From an uncultured delta proteobacterium (GTDB lineage: Bacteria; Desulfobacterota; Desulfomonilia; Desulfomonilales; Desulfomonilaceae): DNA of 64,000 nucleotides. The translations under genes and the position numbers were made by a program. Positions 5,652-62,258 of the stretch are shown one piece after another (positions within the stretch are counted from its first letter, which is position 1; each line of letters starts with the position of its first letter). The stretch is from assembly GCA_963789265.1 (NCBI GenBank), contig CAWBKB010000005.1, positions 224,001 to 288,000 on the forward strand, read 5' to 3'. Under the pieces are notes generated by a model. It was not told the origin of the DNA. It saw nothing but the letters and a program-made list of their open reading frames with translations, and made no database searches.

Positions 5652-6515
5652 CTACTCGCTCTCAATCTTCTCCTCAACCTTGATCGCGTTTGCGAAGCGG
5701 GCGAATTCCTCAGGAGAAAGCGTTTCACCTCGCCTGCCGAGATGAATGCCCGCGTTACGCGCCGCCAGCGCCAGCGTTTGTGAGCTCAACCCAAGTGTGG
5801 GAGTATTGCGTAAAGCGTTCTTCAGAGTTTTGCGACGCTCGGCAAAGGATGCCTTGACGAGACGTGCCAGTAGACCGCGGTCTGTCACCCGAAACGGGGG
5901 TACGTCGGGAAACAACACTTTTACGAGAGTTGAGGTCACCTCCGGCACAGGAAAAAACGCATGTGGAGGAATGTCGAAAACCAACTCCACCTTGGCACTT
6001 ATCCCGAGCAGGACGGTAAGTACTCCATACTCTTTTGCTCCCGGTTCCGCAATCAGACGCTCAGCGACCTCCTTTTGAAGCAAAATGTAAAGAGACGTGA
6101 AAATTTCACGATTTTCCTGAAACATGAAAAGAAGACGACTGGAAATGTTGTAGGGCAAATTTGCGACCACCCGAAGTTTTCCGATTCTTCCGGCAAGAGC
6201 ACGAAAATCATACTTCAAAGCATCCGCGTGTATGAGTTCCGCGTCAGGAGAATGGGCAAATTTTTCCTCCAGGACTCGAAAGAACCCTGAATCAACCTCC
6301 AGAGCGCAGACCTTGGCGCCGCGTTTGACAAGAGCCTCGGTCAATATACCCAGTCCGGCCCCCACTTCGACTACAGCTTCACCGGAAATGATTTTGGCCG
6401 CGTGCACGATTTTGTTCAGATAATGGAAATCTACAAGGAGATTCTGTCCTAGCCATTTCTTTGGCGCCAAGCCATATCCCTTGAAAATCTTTCTTATTTC
6501 AGATGCGTCGGACAT
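5652..6515 (-). CDS. rsmA: 16S rRNA m6,2A dimethyltransferase
   Basis: PKKWLGQNLL, EVGAGLG, VANLPYNIS, QKEVAERL, RRKTLKN. Confidence 0.95.
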   Translation of the reverse strand: MSDASEIRKIFKGYGLAPKKWLGQNLLVDFHYLNKIVHAAKIISGEAVVEVGAGLGILTEALVKRGAKVCALEVDSGFFRVLEEKFAHSPDAELIHADALKYDFRALAGRIGKLRVVANLPYNISSRLLFMFQENREIFTSLYILLQKEVAERLIAEPGAKEYGVLTVLLGISAKVELVFDIPPHAFFPVPEVTSTLVKVLFPDVPPFRVTDRGLLARLVKASFAERRKTLKNALRNTPTLGLSSQTLALAARNAGIHLGRRGETLSPEEFARFANAIKVEEKIESE

Positions 6516-28878: not shown

Positions 28879-30804
28879 ATGAAACGAGTGATCCTCGGCA
28901 CCGCCGGCCACATAGATCATGGAAAGACCGAGTTGGTGCGGGCCCTCACAGGTATTGAGACTGACCGCCTCAAAGAAGAAAAACAGCGAGGCATAAGCAT
29001 AGAGCTGGGGTTTGCTTTCCTGGATCTAGATAAGGACATCCGTATGGGGATTGTGGACGTCCCGGGACACGAGAAATTTGTCCGGCACATGGTGGCCGGC
29101 TCGGGCGGCATAGATATAGCGTTGTTGGTAATTGCTTTGGACGAGGGGGTAATGCCGCAGACTGTGGAGCACCTTGACATCCTGAGCCTACTCTCAATCC
29201 GACAAGGTTTGGTGGTGCTGACGAAGCTGGATCTGGTGGATGAGGAGCTGGCTCTCTTGGCCGAAGAAGATGCAAAAGAGGCCGTTAAGGGAACTTTTCT
29301 GGAAGGCGCTCCCATGATTCGCGTATCTTCCAGGACCGGTGCCGGAATAGATCGACTGCGCACGGCACTCACACAATTGGCTGCGCAAGTCACCCAGCGT
29401 CCTGTTCACGGCCTGCTTCGCCTGCCCGTGGACAGAGTCTTTACCATGAAGGGGCATGGGACGGTTGTAACCGGAACACTCATATCGGGCACACTGTCAA
29501 CTGGGGACGATGTGGAGATACTGCCGGGAGGCCTACGTTCTTCGGTTCGTTCACTGGAGTCTCACAACCGGCCCGAAGTGAAAGTCTTTCCCGGAGAACG
29601 GGTCGCGGTCAATCTGCGTGGGTTGGAACAGGCCCAGATCCACAGAGGAGAAGTATTGACTCACCCCGGGGAGTTCCAACCCTCGTACATGGTCGACGTG
29701 AAGCTTAAAGCTCTTGCGCGTTGTCCGACTGCTCTGAAGAATCGTAGGAAAGTTAGGCTGCATCACTACACTTCAGAAGTTGAAGCTCGCGTTGTGCTTC
29801 CGGGTTTGGAAAGCGTGGAGCCCGGTCAGGAAACGTTAGCACAGTTGCGAACCTCTTTTCCCGTTGTTCCATCCACCGGAGACCACTTTGTTATTAGGGG
29901 ACTCTCTCCGTCCATCACCCTTGGAGGAGGCGTGGTCCTTAATCCGAGAGGAGTCAAACTAAAGGCCCGCTCAGTCAAGTCATTCGCGGAATTGGGTGAC
30001 CAGGACGACACTGCCATTGTAGCCTCGTTAGTGCGGAGCTGCGGTTTGTCCGGCGTTGCACGCAACGAATTGTTGGGGATGTCCGGCTTTTCCGCCAAGC
30101 GATTGGACAAGACCCTGGATTCTCTTCGAAACTCCAGGACTGTGATCCGCTTTGATCCTTCTGAAAATAGGATGATACACGGCGACTTCTTCGATGTGGT
30201 AAAGAGCAAGATACTCAACAGACTCTCCATCTTTCACAGGGATCAGCCGCTCAAGGCAGGCATATCCAAACAAGAGTTACGGTCAATCGTCCCGGGCGGG
30301 GACAAGCTGTTCAAGACTGTAATTGAGAGCCTGGTTTCCAAAGGTGACGTCGTGGACCAGGGGGAAACGATTCGCCTTTCATCTCACGAGATCCGGCTCA
30401 AAGAAGATGAAAAGGGGCTTAAAGAGCGTCTGATGAAAATGATCGTTCAAGGAGGAAATTCGCCGCCGGTCCTTAAAGAAATACTTCAAGCCACCGGAAC
30501 GGATGTCAAGCAGATCCGGAACCTCTTGAATCTTCTGGAAAAGGAAGGTCAAGTTGTTAGAGTCAAAGAAGACATTTACTTTTCGGCGACTTTTGTCAAA
30601 GGAGTTAAGCAAAAGCTTGTCGAATTCATACAGCGGGAAGGGGGTTTGACCCCTTCGCAGTTTCATGAGATTACCGGATCGTCCAGGAAGTACAATATAC
30701 CTCTGCTTGAGTATTTCGACCGTGAGCGTTTCACTATGAGAATAGGAGATCAACGTGTGCTGAGAGGCTTGGGAACCTCCGGCGACGGAGGTAAGGTCGA
30801 ATAA
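28879..30804 (+). CDS. selB: Selenocysteine-specific elongation factor
   Basis: GTAGHIDHGKT, DRLKEEKQRGISIELGF, DVPGHEKF, C-terminal winged helix SRKYNIPLLEYFD. Confidence 0.97.
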   Translation: MKRVILGTAGHIDHGKTELVRALTGIETDRLKEEKQRGISIELGFAFLDLDKDIRMGIVDVPGHEKFVRHMVAGSGGIDIALLVIALDEGVMPQTVEHLDILSLLSIRQGLVVLTKLDLVDEELALLAEEDAKEAVKGTFLEGAPMIRVSSRTGAGIDRLRTALTQLAAQVTQRPVHGLLRLPVDRVFTMKGHGTVVTGTLISGTLSTGDDVEILPGGLRSSVRSLESHNRPEVKVFPGERVAVNLRGLEQAQIHRGEVLTHPGEFQPSYMVDVKLKALARCPTALKNRRKVRLHHYTSEVEARVVLPGLESVEPGQETLAQLRTSFPVVPSTGDHFVIRGLSPSITLGGGVVLNPRGVKLKARSVKSFAELGDQDDTAIVASLVRSCGLSGVARNELLGMSGFSAKRLDKTLDSLRNSRTVIRFDPSENRMIHGDFFDVVKSKILNRLSIFHRDQPLKAGISKQELRSIVPGGDKLFKTVIESLVSKGDVVDQGETIRLSSHEIRLKEDEKGLKERLMKMIVQGGNSPPVLKEILQATGTDVKQIRNLLNLLEKEGQVVRVKEDIYFSATFVKGVKQKLVEFIQREGGLTPSQFHEITGSSRKYNIPLLEYFDRERFTMRIGDQRVLRGLGTSGDGGKVE

Positions 30805-43127: not shown

Positions 43128-44558
43128 TTACGCATCGTTGCCGGATGAAGCTCGGTTGAGGGCGTCCCGTATAAGTCTTGGGATCAGCGAGGGCTGATCC
43201 TCCAAGAGGGTTCGGGGGTCTATAAGAACCGTATCGTCCTTGATCAGTGTTATTACCGGTGGAGTGCCCAGTCTGAGACTATGCTCCAAGCGTGCGGCCG
43301 ATATGTCCAGCGGACGAATGGCTACCCGCGGACCGGGGAGGTCTCCCATCGGCAGTGCACCGCCCCCTACTCTACCGATTCCCGGCTCGATGCTTACCTC
43401 AACTCGTGCGCCAACGACTTCGCGTATTGCGTCGGCAAGTTCAGCGGCAGTTTTCGCTAGCTCTGACTCGGACTTGGTTATCATCATCAGCGTTGGGATG
43501 CATGTGCTAGGCCCTTCGGGTCGGGTGTACTCAACGAGCGTGGCTTCCAGACCCGCAAGAGTCAGCTTGTCCATTCTAAGTGCCCGTGCGAGAGGATTTG
43601 TCTGCATCTTCTCGATAAGATCGGCACGACCGGCCAGAATCCCTGCCTGGGGTCCCCCGAGAAGCTTGTCCCCGCTAAAACTTACCACGTTGACGCCTTT
43701 GGCAAGAACATCCTGGACTGTAATTTCTTCCGGTAGGCCGTACGGCGACAGATCCACCAGACATCCGCTACCCAGGTCCATCATCGTGGGAATTCCATAT
43801 TCTTTCCCTATGGCCACCAACTCTCCCAGCTCGACCTCCCGAGTGAATCCCACGATTCGGTAATTGCTGGTGTGCACTTTCAGAATTAATGAGGTGTTTG
43901 CTCCGATTGCCTGAATGTAGTCCTTAGGATGCGTCCTATTGGTTGTGCCAACTTCTTTCAGGATTGCACCCGATTGAGCCATTACGTCAGGTATCCTGAA
44001 AGAGCCTCCGATTTCTATGAGTTCCCCTCTGGAAACTATGACTTCCCGTCCCTCAGCCAGACTAGACAATGCCAGCAAGACCGCAGCCGCATTATTATTG
44101 ACTGCCAGAGCGGCCTCAGCCCCTGTCAATTCCTCCATGAGTTCTCGGAGATGAGCGTTCCTTTCTCCTCTTCGTCCTTCTCCAAGGTTATATTCAAGAT
44201 TGGAATAGGACTGTGCGGCTTCCGATATCTTTTCAGCCACTCTCTTAGACAGAGGAGAACGTCCGAGATTAGTGTGAACGATCACTCCGGTCGCGTTTAT
44301 GACAGTGACGACCTTTGGCCCGACTGTTTCCAGAGCCAGGCGGGATGCCCGCCGAATCAGCGCGGAAATTGAGCAGTCCGCGTGTGATGCCTGACCCTGA
44401 CGGATTTCCTCTCGAAGTTCGTCCAAGGCGCGTCTCACCATCCGCTTGACAATTTCTTGGGAGTATTTCTCCCTGAGAGGCGCCAATTCCGAGGCGGACA
44501 AGAGGCCGTCCACCGAAGGGATCGAGCGAAACAAATCTGTGGCGTGCTCTTCTCCCAT
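43128..44558 (-). CDS. selA: L-seryl-tRNA(Sec) selenium transferase
   Basis: VINATGVIVHTNLGR, VNNNAAA, SRGELIEIGGSFRIPDVM, FSGDKLLGGPQAG. Confidence 0.97.
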   Translation of the reverse strand: MGEEHATDLFRSIPSVDGLLSASELAPLREKYSQEIVKRMVRRALDELREEIRQGQASHADCSISALIRRASRLALETVGPKVVTVINATGVIVHTNLGRSPLSKRVAEKISEAAQSYSNLEYNLGEGRRGERNAHLRELMEELTGAEAALAVNNNAAAVLLALSSLAEGREVIVSRGELIEIGGSFRIPDVMAQSGAILKEVGTTNRTHPKDYIQAIGANTSLILKVHTSNYRIVGFTREVELGELVAIGKEYGIPTMMDLGSGCLVDLSPYGLPEEITVQDVLAKGVNVVSFSGDKLLGGPQAGILAGRADLIEKMQTNPLARALRMDKLTLAGLEATLVEYTRPEGPSTCIPTLMMITKSESELAKTAAELADAIREVVGARVEVSIEPGIGRVGGGALPMGDLPGPRVAIRPLDISAARLEHSLRLGTPPVITLIKDDTVLIDPRTLLEDQPSLIPRLIRDALNRASSGNDA

Positions 44559-59852: not shown

Positions 59853-60068
59853 ACTGCCGCGCTGCCCTAGCGATTGGTCGTTTCATCAAGGAACTATGTT
59901 CGGAAGCGGACGGACGCGTGGCCAGCTACTGACCGGACGCCTGAAACCGGCAATAATCAAGCCGCGTCTCGCGCAACTCATGCCGAAATTGGTGGCGGTT
60001 TGTGAGGAGGGGCGAGAGGATCTCATGTTTGAAAAGATCCTCCCAAGTAGTTCCCCACAGCTTATAGA

Positions 60069-60353
60069 TCACTGATTGGCCGGCATTGGCCTGGAAGAGC
60101 GGTGCCTGGACCTCATAGGTTTGGGCTGCATTTGACCGTACGCAGCCTGGCCGGGATAACCGTAGTATCCGTACCCATAATTGTATCCGTACCCATACCC
60201 CGCATAGGGAGCTGCTCCCGCACTGTAGCTGCTGCCTGCCCCTGACCAGGGGATACCGCAGTTGAATCAACTCGCCCCTGCGGCGAAAGGCACGATTGCG
60301 ATGGCAAAGACAGCCACCACAAGAAATAACCTAACCGGCTTAATCCACTGCAT
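60069..60353 (-). CDS. Candidate exported selenoprotein (UxxC + Gly/Tyr-rich tail), 94 aa with in-frame TGA at codon 29
   Basis: GAAGGAGG RBS; MQWIKPVRLFLVVAVFAIAIVPFAAGAS-U-FNCGIPWSGAGSSYSAGAAPYAGYGYGYNYGYGYYGYPGQAAYGQMQPKPMRSRHRSSRPMPANQ; TGA at 60267-60269 followed by a hairpin. Confidence 0.65.
60232..60261 (-). promoter_or_regulatory. Putative bacterial SECIS element
   Basis: UGA-UUCAA-CUGC-GGUAU-CCCCU[GGUC]AGGGG-CAG-GCAG; G/GU-containing apical loop about 20 nt after the UGA. Confidence 0.6.
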
Positions 60354-60666
60354 CCTTTCCTCCTTCAAAATGACACATGACTAACGGGAGAGTTATATGT
60401 ACCCTACCGGGGGACCTTTGTCATCTTTTTTCTGCCGGCTGCCATCATTCTCGGATATCTTAAAGAATCTGCGCTATTGGTAGAGTTCAACGGCTGCCGC
60501 CTGCGCGCTACCGATTTCAAAGGGCCATTGTCCACTAGTGGACCATGCGTCCGGCAGGCGCCATGACTTCGGCGCCATCAATAAAAAGGGCGACTCGACG
60601 GTCGCCCTAGCAGCAAATATCATTTGTCAAATTGTGTTTCTCAGCACGCTATCCCAAAGCGTTTAT

Positions 60667-60930
60667 CTACTCTTTTCGGCAGATCTGGTCTTTCAAAGCT
60701 TCAGACGACCAGACCGCCATTGGACCGCACGCGCCGCGAGCGTCTATGCGGCAGCGATAGCCTGTTCTCGTGACTCCCTGCCCATCAAGAGCGTCCCAAC
60801 TGTTCTTGAAATAGCAGCATTCATCATTAAAGCAGACATAATGCGTTTCGCCGCCCCACGATGAATCAATCGGGGTCTTAATCGGATCCATCTCGCTGCC
60901 ACAGTGCGGGCATGTGGGATCTTTGTCCAT
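60667..60930 (-). CDS. Zinc-ribbon domain protein
   Basis: CPHCG...YVCFNDECCYF; GGAGG RBS. Confidence 0.75.
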   Translation of the reverse strand: MDKDPTCPHCGSEMDPIKTPIDSSWGGETHYVCFNDECCYFKNSWDALDGQGVTRTGYRCRIDARGACGPMAVWSSEALKDQICRKE

Positions 60931-61163: not shown

Positions 61164-62258
61164 TCAATCGAACAACCTATATTTTCTGTAGAAGAATGGT
61201 TTGAGGACCTTCAATCCTAATATTGACACGACGGGCTTGATCCATGAACCAATGCGGCTGTTGCTCCCTAAACACCTGCGACAGTATGGGTTGACAAGAC
61301 GACCCCGCCTAAAACCTCTCATTACTCGTTCAAGTTCAGCGCCGGAGAGAATTTCGAGGAGAGATGAATCCTTGAGGCTTCCCAGCGAGGTGCGGCCATC
61401 GAAGTCTACACAGCACAATACCACCTCTCCTGAGTAAAGAATGGCAAAATGGTCCCGCATCCCAAAACAATAGCCGTATGCCGCCTCTACGATGTCTGCT
61501 CCAGAGAAGGCATTACCCCAGTCTGTAAGTACGTAAGTCTCTATGAAGATATTGGGGCTAATCTCAATTACGTTCCATCCGTGAATGCCGATCTTCTTCA
61601 GCCTTTGGGCCAGGTGCCCGGCCGCGCAGCTAGGACCGAGGCGCCGATAAATAATCTGAGCCCATTCTCGGACGGAATTTCTAAGAGCCTTTGAGCTTCC
61701 CATAAAATTGGGGATTCCAAGCTCATCTCGCATCTGTTTTGCGAAAGACGTGGTCATTATACGAATTTTGAAAATAGGAGGCGAAGGTCTGGCTGCACGC
61801 ACGACCAACAGATCCAGTACTCTTGCTCGATAGTCTTCGAAATCCATGCGAGTTCCGCGGGTGGCAAGGAAACTGTCCTCATCAGGAGTTTGCAGGGAAA
61901 TATCTATTTGGTGCAGGTCTCGCTCGGCTAGTGCTTTTATGGTTTGAGGGTTCAGGAGAGCGCCGTTCGTGGTGAGCCCTACCGGCAGATTTCGAGCGCG
62001 AGCATGATCTAGAATGTCAAGAAACCCGGGGTGCAGAAGCGGTTCTCCCATCACGTGAAAAGTTACCTTCTCTGCCAAATCAAGCTCAGAAATCTGATCC
62101 AGAGCAGATCGAGCCAATGCCTCATTCATTACCCCGCGCTTACGCGTCATCATAGAGTCCGGGCAGAACAGACAAGAGAAGTTGCACCTGTTGGTTAACT
62201 CCAGATGTATTCGTTTAAACTTCTTCGGAAGATAAGGCGGTAATTTCTTGTGAGTCAC
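61164..62258 (-). CDS. Radical SAM protein with SPASM/twitch domain
   Basis: ELTNRCNFSCLFC, MGEPLLHP, TTNG, YCFG...GEVVLCCVDFDG...YCRRC. Confidence 0.9.
   Translation of the reverse strand: MTHKKLPPYLPKKFKRIHLELTNRCNFSCLFCPDSMMTRKRGVMNEALARSALDQISELDLAEKVTFHVMGEPLLHPGFLDILDHARARNLPVGLTTNGALLNPQTIKALAERDLHQIDISLQTPDEDSFLATRGTRMDFEDYRARVLDLLVVRAARPSPPIFKIRIMTTSFAKQMRDELGIPNFMGSSKALRNSVREWAQIIYRRLGPSCAAGHLAQRLKKIGIHGWNVIEISPNIFIETYVLTDWGNAFSGADIVEAAYGYCFGMRDHFAILYSGEVVLCCVDFDGRTSLGSLKDSSLLEILSGAELERVMRGFRRGRLVNPYCRRCLGSNSRIGSWIKPVVSILGLKVLKPFFYRKYRLFD

Follow-up and report, generated by a model that had tools for sequence, protein, structure and literature searches.

A total of 119 prokaryotic selenoprotein (sub)families, with their model identifiers, were listed in 2026 in Table 1 of PMC13188914, and most of them are thioredoxin-like or contain other globular domains. 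They include small hypothetical selenoproteins of the UxxC, UGSC and CYCXC types, found mostly in Thermodesulfobacteriota-like anaerobes, and a putative mercuric transport protein selenoprotein, which places selenocysteine (Sec) variants of metal-handling proteins on record. The bacterial selenocysteine insertion sequence (bSECIS) model given in section 5 of the same work has a spacing range of 16–37 nt, and in the deep-Sep paper (PMC12013277) the three hypothetical families are named after other organisms. The present study deals with a gene on the minus strand of a stretch of 64,000 nt from an uncultured delta proteobacterium of the family Desulfomonilaceae (assembly GCA_963789265.1, contig CAWBKB010000005.1, positions 224,001 to 288,000), hereafter the window. 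A signal peptide, the sequence Ser-Sec-Phe-Asn-Cys with Sec at an in-frame UGA, a Gly/Tyr/Ser-rich stretch and a basic tail follow one another in its product, and it is very probably a genuine selenoprotein gene.

The window protein was compared with the available family models. No Pfam family was matched at E ≤ 0.001 and no NCBIfam model at E ≤ 1, save Ssp4 at 0.44, which was rejected as a chance match. NF049953 (hypothetical protein DG, GUxG), the only catalogue entry with a similar motif, gave no match at the locus. No fitting entry was present in Table 1 of PMC13188914, in which the entries with CDD models only are thioredoxin-type folds and were not scanned. Protein sets of 5.8 billion and 1.84 billion gave 9 and 14 matches, unnamed or labelled hypothetical protein, and no description of the selenoprotein family was found in the literature searched. 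An initial annotation, made from the letters of the window without database searches, had not recognised the peptide as belonging to any known selenoprotein family, in agreement with these searches of Pfam, NCBIfam and the catalogue. As far as sequence comparison goes, the family is uncatalogued and lineage-restricted, and its predicted product is unusual: small, exported and apparently unstructured.

Structure of the gene and conservation of the UGA codon

The reading frame consists of 28 codons ending in AGAS, the TGA, the codons for FNC and 62 more codons (65 in total past the TGA), and terminates at a second TGA (60071–60069). The Shine-Dalgarno (SD) sequence, the ATG, the hydrophobic segment ending in AGA and followed by Ser, the in-frame TGA with its U-x-x-C motif and the basic tail, all described in the initial annotation, were present on the minus strand at the positions given in Table 1. 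The chosen start is preceded by a strong SD sequence in the homologs as well.

Of 61 related genomes, 21 had a match in a six-frame search with the read-through protein, and almost every match contained a single in-frame TGA; a profile search was positive for 50 of the 70 genomes of the bacterial family, from 16 of its 26 genera. One in-frame TGA was present in 59 of the 68 profile match rows of these 70 genomes, the alignment column being checked in 28 copies only. These 28 copies are the window gene and 27 homologs from about 16 genera, the loci of which were translated and checked at the DNA level; TGA occupies the Sec column in all of them. Their identity to the window protein ranges from 82% down to 28%, and they share a common layout: SD sequence and start, signal peptide, [S/G/A]-U, head Cys, (F)PSWSGG, SSY, G/Y repeats and a K/R-rich tail. 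The head is of the x-x-C type (UAGC, UFNC, UWNC, UFGC) or has Cys directly after Sec (UCGF, UCSF, UCGT, UCPS), and most homologs stop at TAA or TAG. Genomes, public proteins and loci are designated here by the prefixes G, P and L, respectively.

Metagenomic members were sought with a degenerate DNA pattern for G-C-F-P-S-W-S-G-G, in which the Sec codon and all synonymous sites were left free. Ten of the 16 matches were members of the family; in each of them the Sec codon is TGA and P-S-W-S is written exactly CCC TCC TGG TCA. The 6 unrelated matches used other codons (CCG/CCT, TCG/TCT etc.). No TGG was found at the Sec codon among the 28 genome copies or the 10 metagenomic members, and neither TGG nor TGC in any hairpin-bearing copy examined. 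The initial annotation had named a Trp codon at this place, in reads or homologs, as evidence of a sequencing error or nonsense mutation; TGA was found in all 27 homologs and 10 metagenomic members. Contigs of two runs from one study agree with the window at the UGA, and a contig from a second study, with less than 90% identity and 54 differences, has none at 60267–60269 among the differences listed.

Five public proteins (P0002, P0003, P0011, P0016 and P0018) show W at the Sec position. The W in P0003 is a gene-calling artefact, because its contig (L093) has TGA at this place, and the W in the other four is presumably of the same origin. Such Trp-bearing records would mislead any check for TGG or Trp. 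Some public calls of the family begin after the Sec codon. The expectation that standard gene callers would miss the gene was correct in part: some miss it, but others call it with Trp at the UGA. The family needs a curated model for this reason, and the near-invariant hairpin together with the UGA provides a simple search key.

When 401 genomes were sampled evenly from the phylum, 4 of the 7 belonging to the family of the window organism gave a match, as did 1 of the 393 others. The latter, G433, was the sole match outside the family and was rejected as unrelated, as it is without the head motif. By these searches, the protein family occurs within a single bacterial family, the members of which are Sec-using anaerobes that bear dsrA. 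Further candidates (G052:C63, G026:C1070 and P0019–P0022) lack the head motif and were discarded as chance or G/Y-rich matches, and a single-protein scan of wider genome contigs gave only 3 matches, of Lachnospiraceae/Porcincola, which were spurious. The genome G006 has a third copy, G006c (L035 = G006:C19:326246-338516, gene at about 6001–6336), in which signal peptide, UGA and hairpin are all retained and the frame shifts within the GYGYG repeat; either a frameshift that made it a pseudogene or an error of assembly in the repeat is the probable cause. This copy was excluded from the protein alignment and the composition counts and retained in the DNA alignment of the hairpin.

The hairpin downstream of the UGA codon

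The hairpin CCCCU-GGUC-AGGGG with its outer CUGC/GCAG pairs was present as initially annotated, its loop beginning 19 nt past the UGA, against the approximately 20 nt first given, and it was recovered in the fold of the window sequence (Table 1). The loop, the stem and the spacing agree with the bSECIS criteria of PMC13188914 section 5. At gathering thresholds, Rfam gave no match anywhere in the window.

In the alignment of 28 sequences, 94% of the cells of a 6-pair helix are paired, compared with 50–75% when the 3' strand is slid by 1–3 columns, and RNAalifold yields the same hairpin unaided. Pair 19:30 is found as U-A (14), C-G (7) and U-G (7), and the loop-closing pair as U-A (24) and C-G (2), the C-G cases combining a Trp to Arg change (UGG to CGG) with the synonymous change UCA to UCG. 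Codon usage is similarly constrained: Pro is encoded by CCG (28), CCA (27), CCT (40) and CCC (37) outside the hairpin and by CCC in 22 of 22 cases inside it; for Ser, all six codons occur elsewhere, but the two in the hairpin are invariably TCC and TCA. When the 42 nt that follow the UGA are folded, the minimum free energy (MFE) structure includes the hairpin in 25 of the 28 members, at a spacing of 16–19 nt and with G as the first or second loop base. Conservation of the hairpin, which had been proposed as a check, is thus observed across the homologs, with compensatory changes at two pairs; judged from its frozen synonymous sites and compensatory pairs, the hairpin is under selection at the RNA level.

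Cysteine forms and coding conservation

P0012 is a natural protein encoded in one open reading frame (ORF), with 67% identity to the Sec member G002b (E = 2e-35). It has Cys29 opposite Sec29 and keeps the C-x-x-C, with L-R-R-S-A-D in place of the hairpin-encoded V-P-W-S-G-G. Because it is lost in this Cys form, conservation of the PSWSGG motif indicates a requirement of the RNA rather than of the protein. The hairpin is missing in both of the Cys forms with DNA. In G017b/P0013 the head is S-C-P-L-C, with the CxxC one residue off the Sec column, and a CxC-type Cys group, which includes the paralog P0007 in the genome of the window, is more distant. In the protein atlas, P0007 gave only unnamed clusters, with scores below 0.9. 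Both the conservation of the TGA in homologs and the Sec/Cys alternation, for which a translated search had been suggested, were therefore found.

In close pairs, codon positions 1/2/3 account for 51/37/130 differences before the UGA and for 130/124/263 after it, the latter over 1179 aligned codons; in both cases the pairs are non-independent. Third-position changes thus predominate past the TGA, and the frame, length, start site, tail and stop are conserved across genera. The initial annotation had asked for coding conservation in this region, and it is present.

Selenocysteine machinery of the genome

The genes selA and selB are both located in the window, as had been annotated (Table 1). 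The tRNA-Sec of the genome scored 71 bits; no tRNA gene was found within the window in a tRNA scan. The genome also encodes SelD, with an in-frame TGA of its own, followed at about 20 nt by a hairpin of 7 bp with a G-first loop (GGA/GGGAC). The SelD gene (G000:C7:193442-194362, minus strand, locus L081) is itself that of a selenoprotein (...SGUAAKL...). SelB is above the cut-off in 66 of the 70 family genomes, and its co-occurrence with the selenoprotein gene is uninformative for that reason.

Two full-length SelB homologs, scoring about 400 and about 300 bits and both exceeding the curated cut-off, were detected in G010, G036, G453, G014, G462, G035, G027, G019, G033 and G017, and a single one in the genome of the window. 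The second SelB might read a different SECIS class. The genome of the window contains dsrA above the cut-off; the match (G000:C6:339556-340795, minus strand) is in two adjoining pieces, covering profile positions 1–257 and 255–401 in different frames, which suggests a frameshift or an assembly error.

Features of the predicted exported product

Signal peptides were judged with a rule-based script on 23 members. In all 23, residue -3 is A, V or S and residue -1 is A, C or S, the cut falling just ahead of the residue that precedes Sec; the first 10 residues contain 1–3 K/R and the hydrophobic core has a Kyte-Doolittle mean of 2.3–3.4. A positive n-region, a hydrophobic h-region and small residues at -3 and -1 would fit a substrate of signal peptidase I. 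From these features, export and cleavage are predicted.

The mature chain would have 55–71 aa in 22 of the 23 members and 100 aa in G029. It contains 13–28% G, 9–19% Y and 6–25% S with few acidic residues, and 4–10 K/R are present among the last 20 residues in 22 of the 23 members. AlphaFold2, run on an alignment of 25 rows, gave one helix (residues 4–24) and coil elsewhere, with a mean pLDDT of 54; the mature head and the Gly/Tyr/Ser-rich region had no secondary structure and a pLDDT of 40–57. The mature chain is predicted to be disordered.

Evaluation of the evidence and alternative explanations

The reading of the gene as one for a Sec-containing peptide, already proposed in the initial annotation, is strongly supported by the comparative data on the UGA, the hairpin, the Cys forms and the coding conservation. 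Several observations weigh against it or reduce its force. The fold of the single 61-nt sequence was no better than those of shuffled sequences (z = +0.91) and was not used as evidence for that reason. Of the 2232 TGA triplets in the window, 9.4% pass loose published bSECIS criteria; with a stricter version 7 triplets (0.31%) pass, and only the codon-29 TGA among these has a long open frame on both sides. The hairpin alone is within chance, and the weight of the evidence lies in the comparative data. There, the MFE folds of the 42 nt in G025, G016b and G029c are without the hairpin in the form described, most stem positions are invariant, so that covariation rests on two pairs, and the shuffle control overstates the signal because the homologs are related. 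The link to the CxC-type paralogs is loose: the window protein and P0007 gave E = 1.1 in a pairwise comparison and 3.6e-4 in a within-genome search, and the profile that scores these paralogs well includes one of them. The signal peptides were called by simple rules only, the disorder was predicted from a shallow alignment, expression of the gene and selenium in the protein are predictions, and no RNA run was found to cover the stretch. As regards function, 88 flanking ORFs at 14 other loci gave no conserved partner, and the neighbours differ between genera.

Three other explanations were considered. If the UGA were a true stop, only a hydrophobic peptide of 28 residues would be made, and the conservation downstream would belong to an RNA element or to another frame. 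An overlapping TTG-started ORF of 114 codons does exist in another frame (59926–60270, minus strand) and has tblastn matches within the genus, but these are limited to close relatives with similar DNA. Only the Sec frame is open across genera with the same length, G/Y-rich middle, basic tail and place of the stop; substitutions past the UGA are dominated by third positions, the Cys forms have the whole protein in a single ORF, and no start codon or SD sequence follows the UGA on the minus strand of the window. Termination at codon 29 is thus extremely improbable. Hairpins after stop codons can promote read-through, and the UGA could also be read as Trp or Cys by a near-cognate tRNA, stimulated by the hairpin and without selenium, as the W in the public records mentioned above might suggest. 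Such recoding is considered very unlikely, since the W calls are translated TGA, as checked on the P0003 contig, and the natural non-UGA forms have Cys, which commonly replaces Sec, at the aligned residue, never Trp. Moreover, the hairpin fits the bSECIS model in loop, spacing and stem and agrees in geometry with the SelD SECIS in this genome, in which the Sec machinery is complete, SelB being above the cut-off in nearly all genomes of the family.

In the remaining explanation the N-terminus is a leader, and the peptide is the precursor of a ribosomally synthesised and post-translationally modified peptide (RiPP), in the manner of SbtA/SbtM. The modifying enzyme would be the radical SAM/SPASM protein encoded about 800 bp upstream on the same strand (61164–62258), the weak, below-cut-off NCBIfam matches of which include peptide maturases; its best NCBIfam match, however, is a tungsten-cofactor oxidoreductase maturase, far below the cut-off (83 versus 380 bits). 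This neighbour was found at 6 syntenic loci of one genus only, at none of the 14 other scanned loci, and not beside the extra paralogs of the genus, and a terminator-like hairpin separates the selenoprotein gene from the genes upstream. Small Sec-containing precursors are on record (Selenobacteriocin, TIGR04081; PMC13188914 Table 1), but neither TIGR04081 nor any other NCBIfam model matched the window protein, and the N-terminus obeys the signal-peptidase -3/-1 rule in all 23 members. A RiPP precursor is accordingly given little credence, and the gene is best regarded as that of a selenoprotein, probably exported.

Promoter and gene neighbourhood

An A-run with GATGACAAA is located about 70 nt upstream of the start and is invariant in all 12 copies of the genus, paralogs at other loci included (window 60392–60431 and upstream of the copies at loci L025–L035). 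It is followed after about 17 nt by TACATATAAC, likewise invariant upstream of the 12 copies. By eye, TGACA follows the A-run in 8 of 13 copies from other genera. A consensus promoter scan of the window region did not call this promoter-like element. The A-run, GATGACAAA and TACATATAAC would together form the gene's own promoter, probably a strong one with an UP element and possibly including a regulator site. The terminator-like hairpin, which ends the upstream gene, suggests that the selenoprotein gene is separately transcribed.

The radical SAM/SPASM, Ogr/Delta-like, CrtC-like and SbcCD neighbours are syntenic within the genus only. ArsR-type regulators and RND/HlyD efflux genes, each at 3 of 14 loci, were too sporadic to be counted as partners. 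Between the radical SAM/SPASM gene and the selenoprotein gene lies the gene of an Ogr/Delta-like zinc-finger protein of 87 aa (60667–60930, minus strand), which is 88–93% identical across the genus, far above its neighbours.

Table 1. Positions of the selenoprotein gene, its elements and the associated genes in the window.
Feature	Position	Strand	Characteristics
Selenoprotein gene	60069..60353	-	94 codons and TGA stop; Sec at codon 29; same layout in homologs
Shine-Dalgarno GAAGGAGG	60359..60366	-	5 nt ahead of ATG (60353-60351)
Predicted Sec-type signal peptide	60273..60353	-	Codons 1-27; ends A-G-A; cleavage expected before Ser28
In-frame UGA, putatively read as selenocysteine	60267..60269	-	Codon 29; mature residue 2; U-x-x-C motif
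Mature head S-U-F-N-C and Gly/Tyr/Ser-rich low-complexity region	60132..60272	-	From composition; no predicted secondary structure
Basic C-terminal tail	60072..60131	-	Residues 75-94
bSECIS-like element	60229..60261	-	MFE -14.6 kcal/mol; 5 bp stem; spacing 19 nt
Upper stem CCCCU/AGGGG	60252-60248 with 60243-60239	-	Hairpin spans 60252-60239
Apical loop GGUC	60247-60244	-	Starts 19 nt after UGA
Lower pairs CUGC/GCAG	60261-60258 with 60232-60229	-	
Putative promoter	60392..60431	-	A-run and ATGACA (-35-like); TACATATAAC (-10-like)
Terminator-like hairpin and T-run	60587..60608	-	Ends upstream gene
selA (selenocysteine synthase)	43128..44558	-	PF03841, E = 5.6e-152
selB (Sec-specific elongation factor)	28888..30765	+	TIGR00475, 386 bits, above curated cut-off

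Proposed mechanism and function

The following model draws on what sequence comparison has revealed: a conserved UGA, constraint on the RNA, coding conservation, alternation with Cys, a Sec machinery in the genome and the features of a signal peptide. From these we infer that selenium is actually inserted and that the protein is exported and cleaved, as well as the whole of the function. Codon 29, the UGA, would be decoded as selenocysteine by SelB and tRNA-Sec, recruited by the hairpin of 5–7 bp with its GGUC loop, 16–19 nt past the UGA and written in Pro-(Ser)-Trp-Ser-Gly-Gly codons. A pre-protein of about 94 aa would then be cleaved behind A-x-A to give an exported chain of about 67 aa, starting with [S/G/A]-Sec-x-x-Cys (Sec-Cys in paralogs) and continuing with a G/Y/S-rich, probably disordered part and a Lys/Arg tail.

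A tentative function can be suggested for such a chain. The selenol/thiol head may bind a soft metal, a metalloid or a chalcogenide surface, or else may undergo a selenenylsulfide cycle, on a self-associating, surface-binding chain; the G/Y-rich part would self-associate and the basic tail would hold the peptide on anionic envelope or mineral surfaces. A still more speculative proposal, and a rather doubtful one, is that of a non-enzymatic, disordered, exported selenoprotein, the selenol/thiol pair of which would hold soft metals or nascent metal-sulfide or metal-selenide (or S0/Se0) particles, the Gly/Tyr-rich body and the basic tail building it into a coat or matrix on the envelope of sulfate reducers; it would be the first of its kind in bacteria.

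With few exceptions, the prokaryotic selenoproteins known so far are globular and act as redox enzymes or metal-site proteins. If this last proposal is true, selenium would serve here as a mineral or metal anchor and not as the redox centre of a catalyst. A low-complexity selenoprotein, small, exported and with Sec at the mature N-terminus, would widen the uses of Sec and would point to extracytoplasmic selenium chemistry in sulfate reducers. A SECIS that dictates P-S-W-S-G-G, lost when Sec is replaced by Cys, also calls for caution with conserved motifs beside Sec.

Comparison with known systems

The bSECIS-decoded genes E. coli fdhF and the SelD of the window genome have, like the window gene, an in-frame UGA followed by a short hairpin within the coding region, with G in the first loop positions. 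The apical loop of fdhF is also GGUC, and the SelD hairpin has the same geometry as that of the selenoprotein gene. The hairpin of the window differs from those of bSECIS genes in being minimal (5–7 bp), near-identical over 16 genera, dictating P-S-W-S-G-G and being lost in the Cys forms.

SgpA, SgpB and SgpC of purple sulfur bacteria are small proteins with a signal peptide and Gly/Tyr-rich repeats, structural at a chalcogen deposit, and are not known to contain Sec or an N-terminal Cys pair. Their likeness to the window protein, to which the initial annotation had pointed, is one of composition. Selenobacteriocin SbtA/SbtM (TIGR04081/TIGR04082) is likewise a system with a small Sec peptide, and a radical SAM/SPASM gene lies near the window gene. 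The differences are that TIGR04081 does not match, the linkage to the radical SAM gene is confined to one genus, one Sec is present instead of the two listed (PMC13188914), and the N-terminus is a predicted export signal.

The small hypothetical selenoproteins of the UxxC, UGSC and CYCXC types (PMC13188914 Table 1) resemble the window protein in being short and of the Sec-x-x-Cys type. The window protein matched none of their Pfam or NCBIfam models, and is distinguished by its signal peptide, G/Y-rich body, basic tail and the lack of a predicted fold. Exported binders of soft metals, of the MerP type with MxCxxC, share with it export and a two-chalcogen motif with x-x spacing. The window protein differs from these in having no HMA or MerT match and in carrying its motif at the extreme N-terminus of a chain predicted to be disordered.

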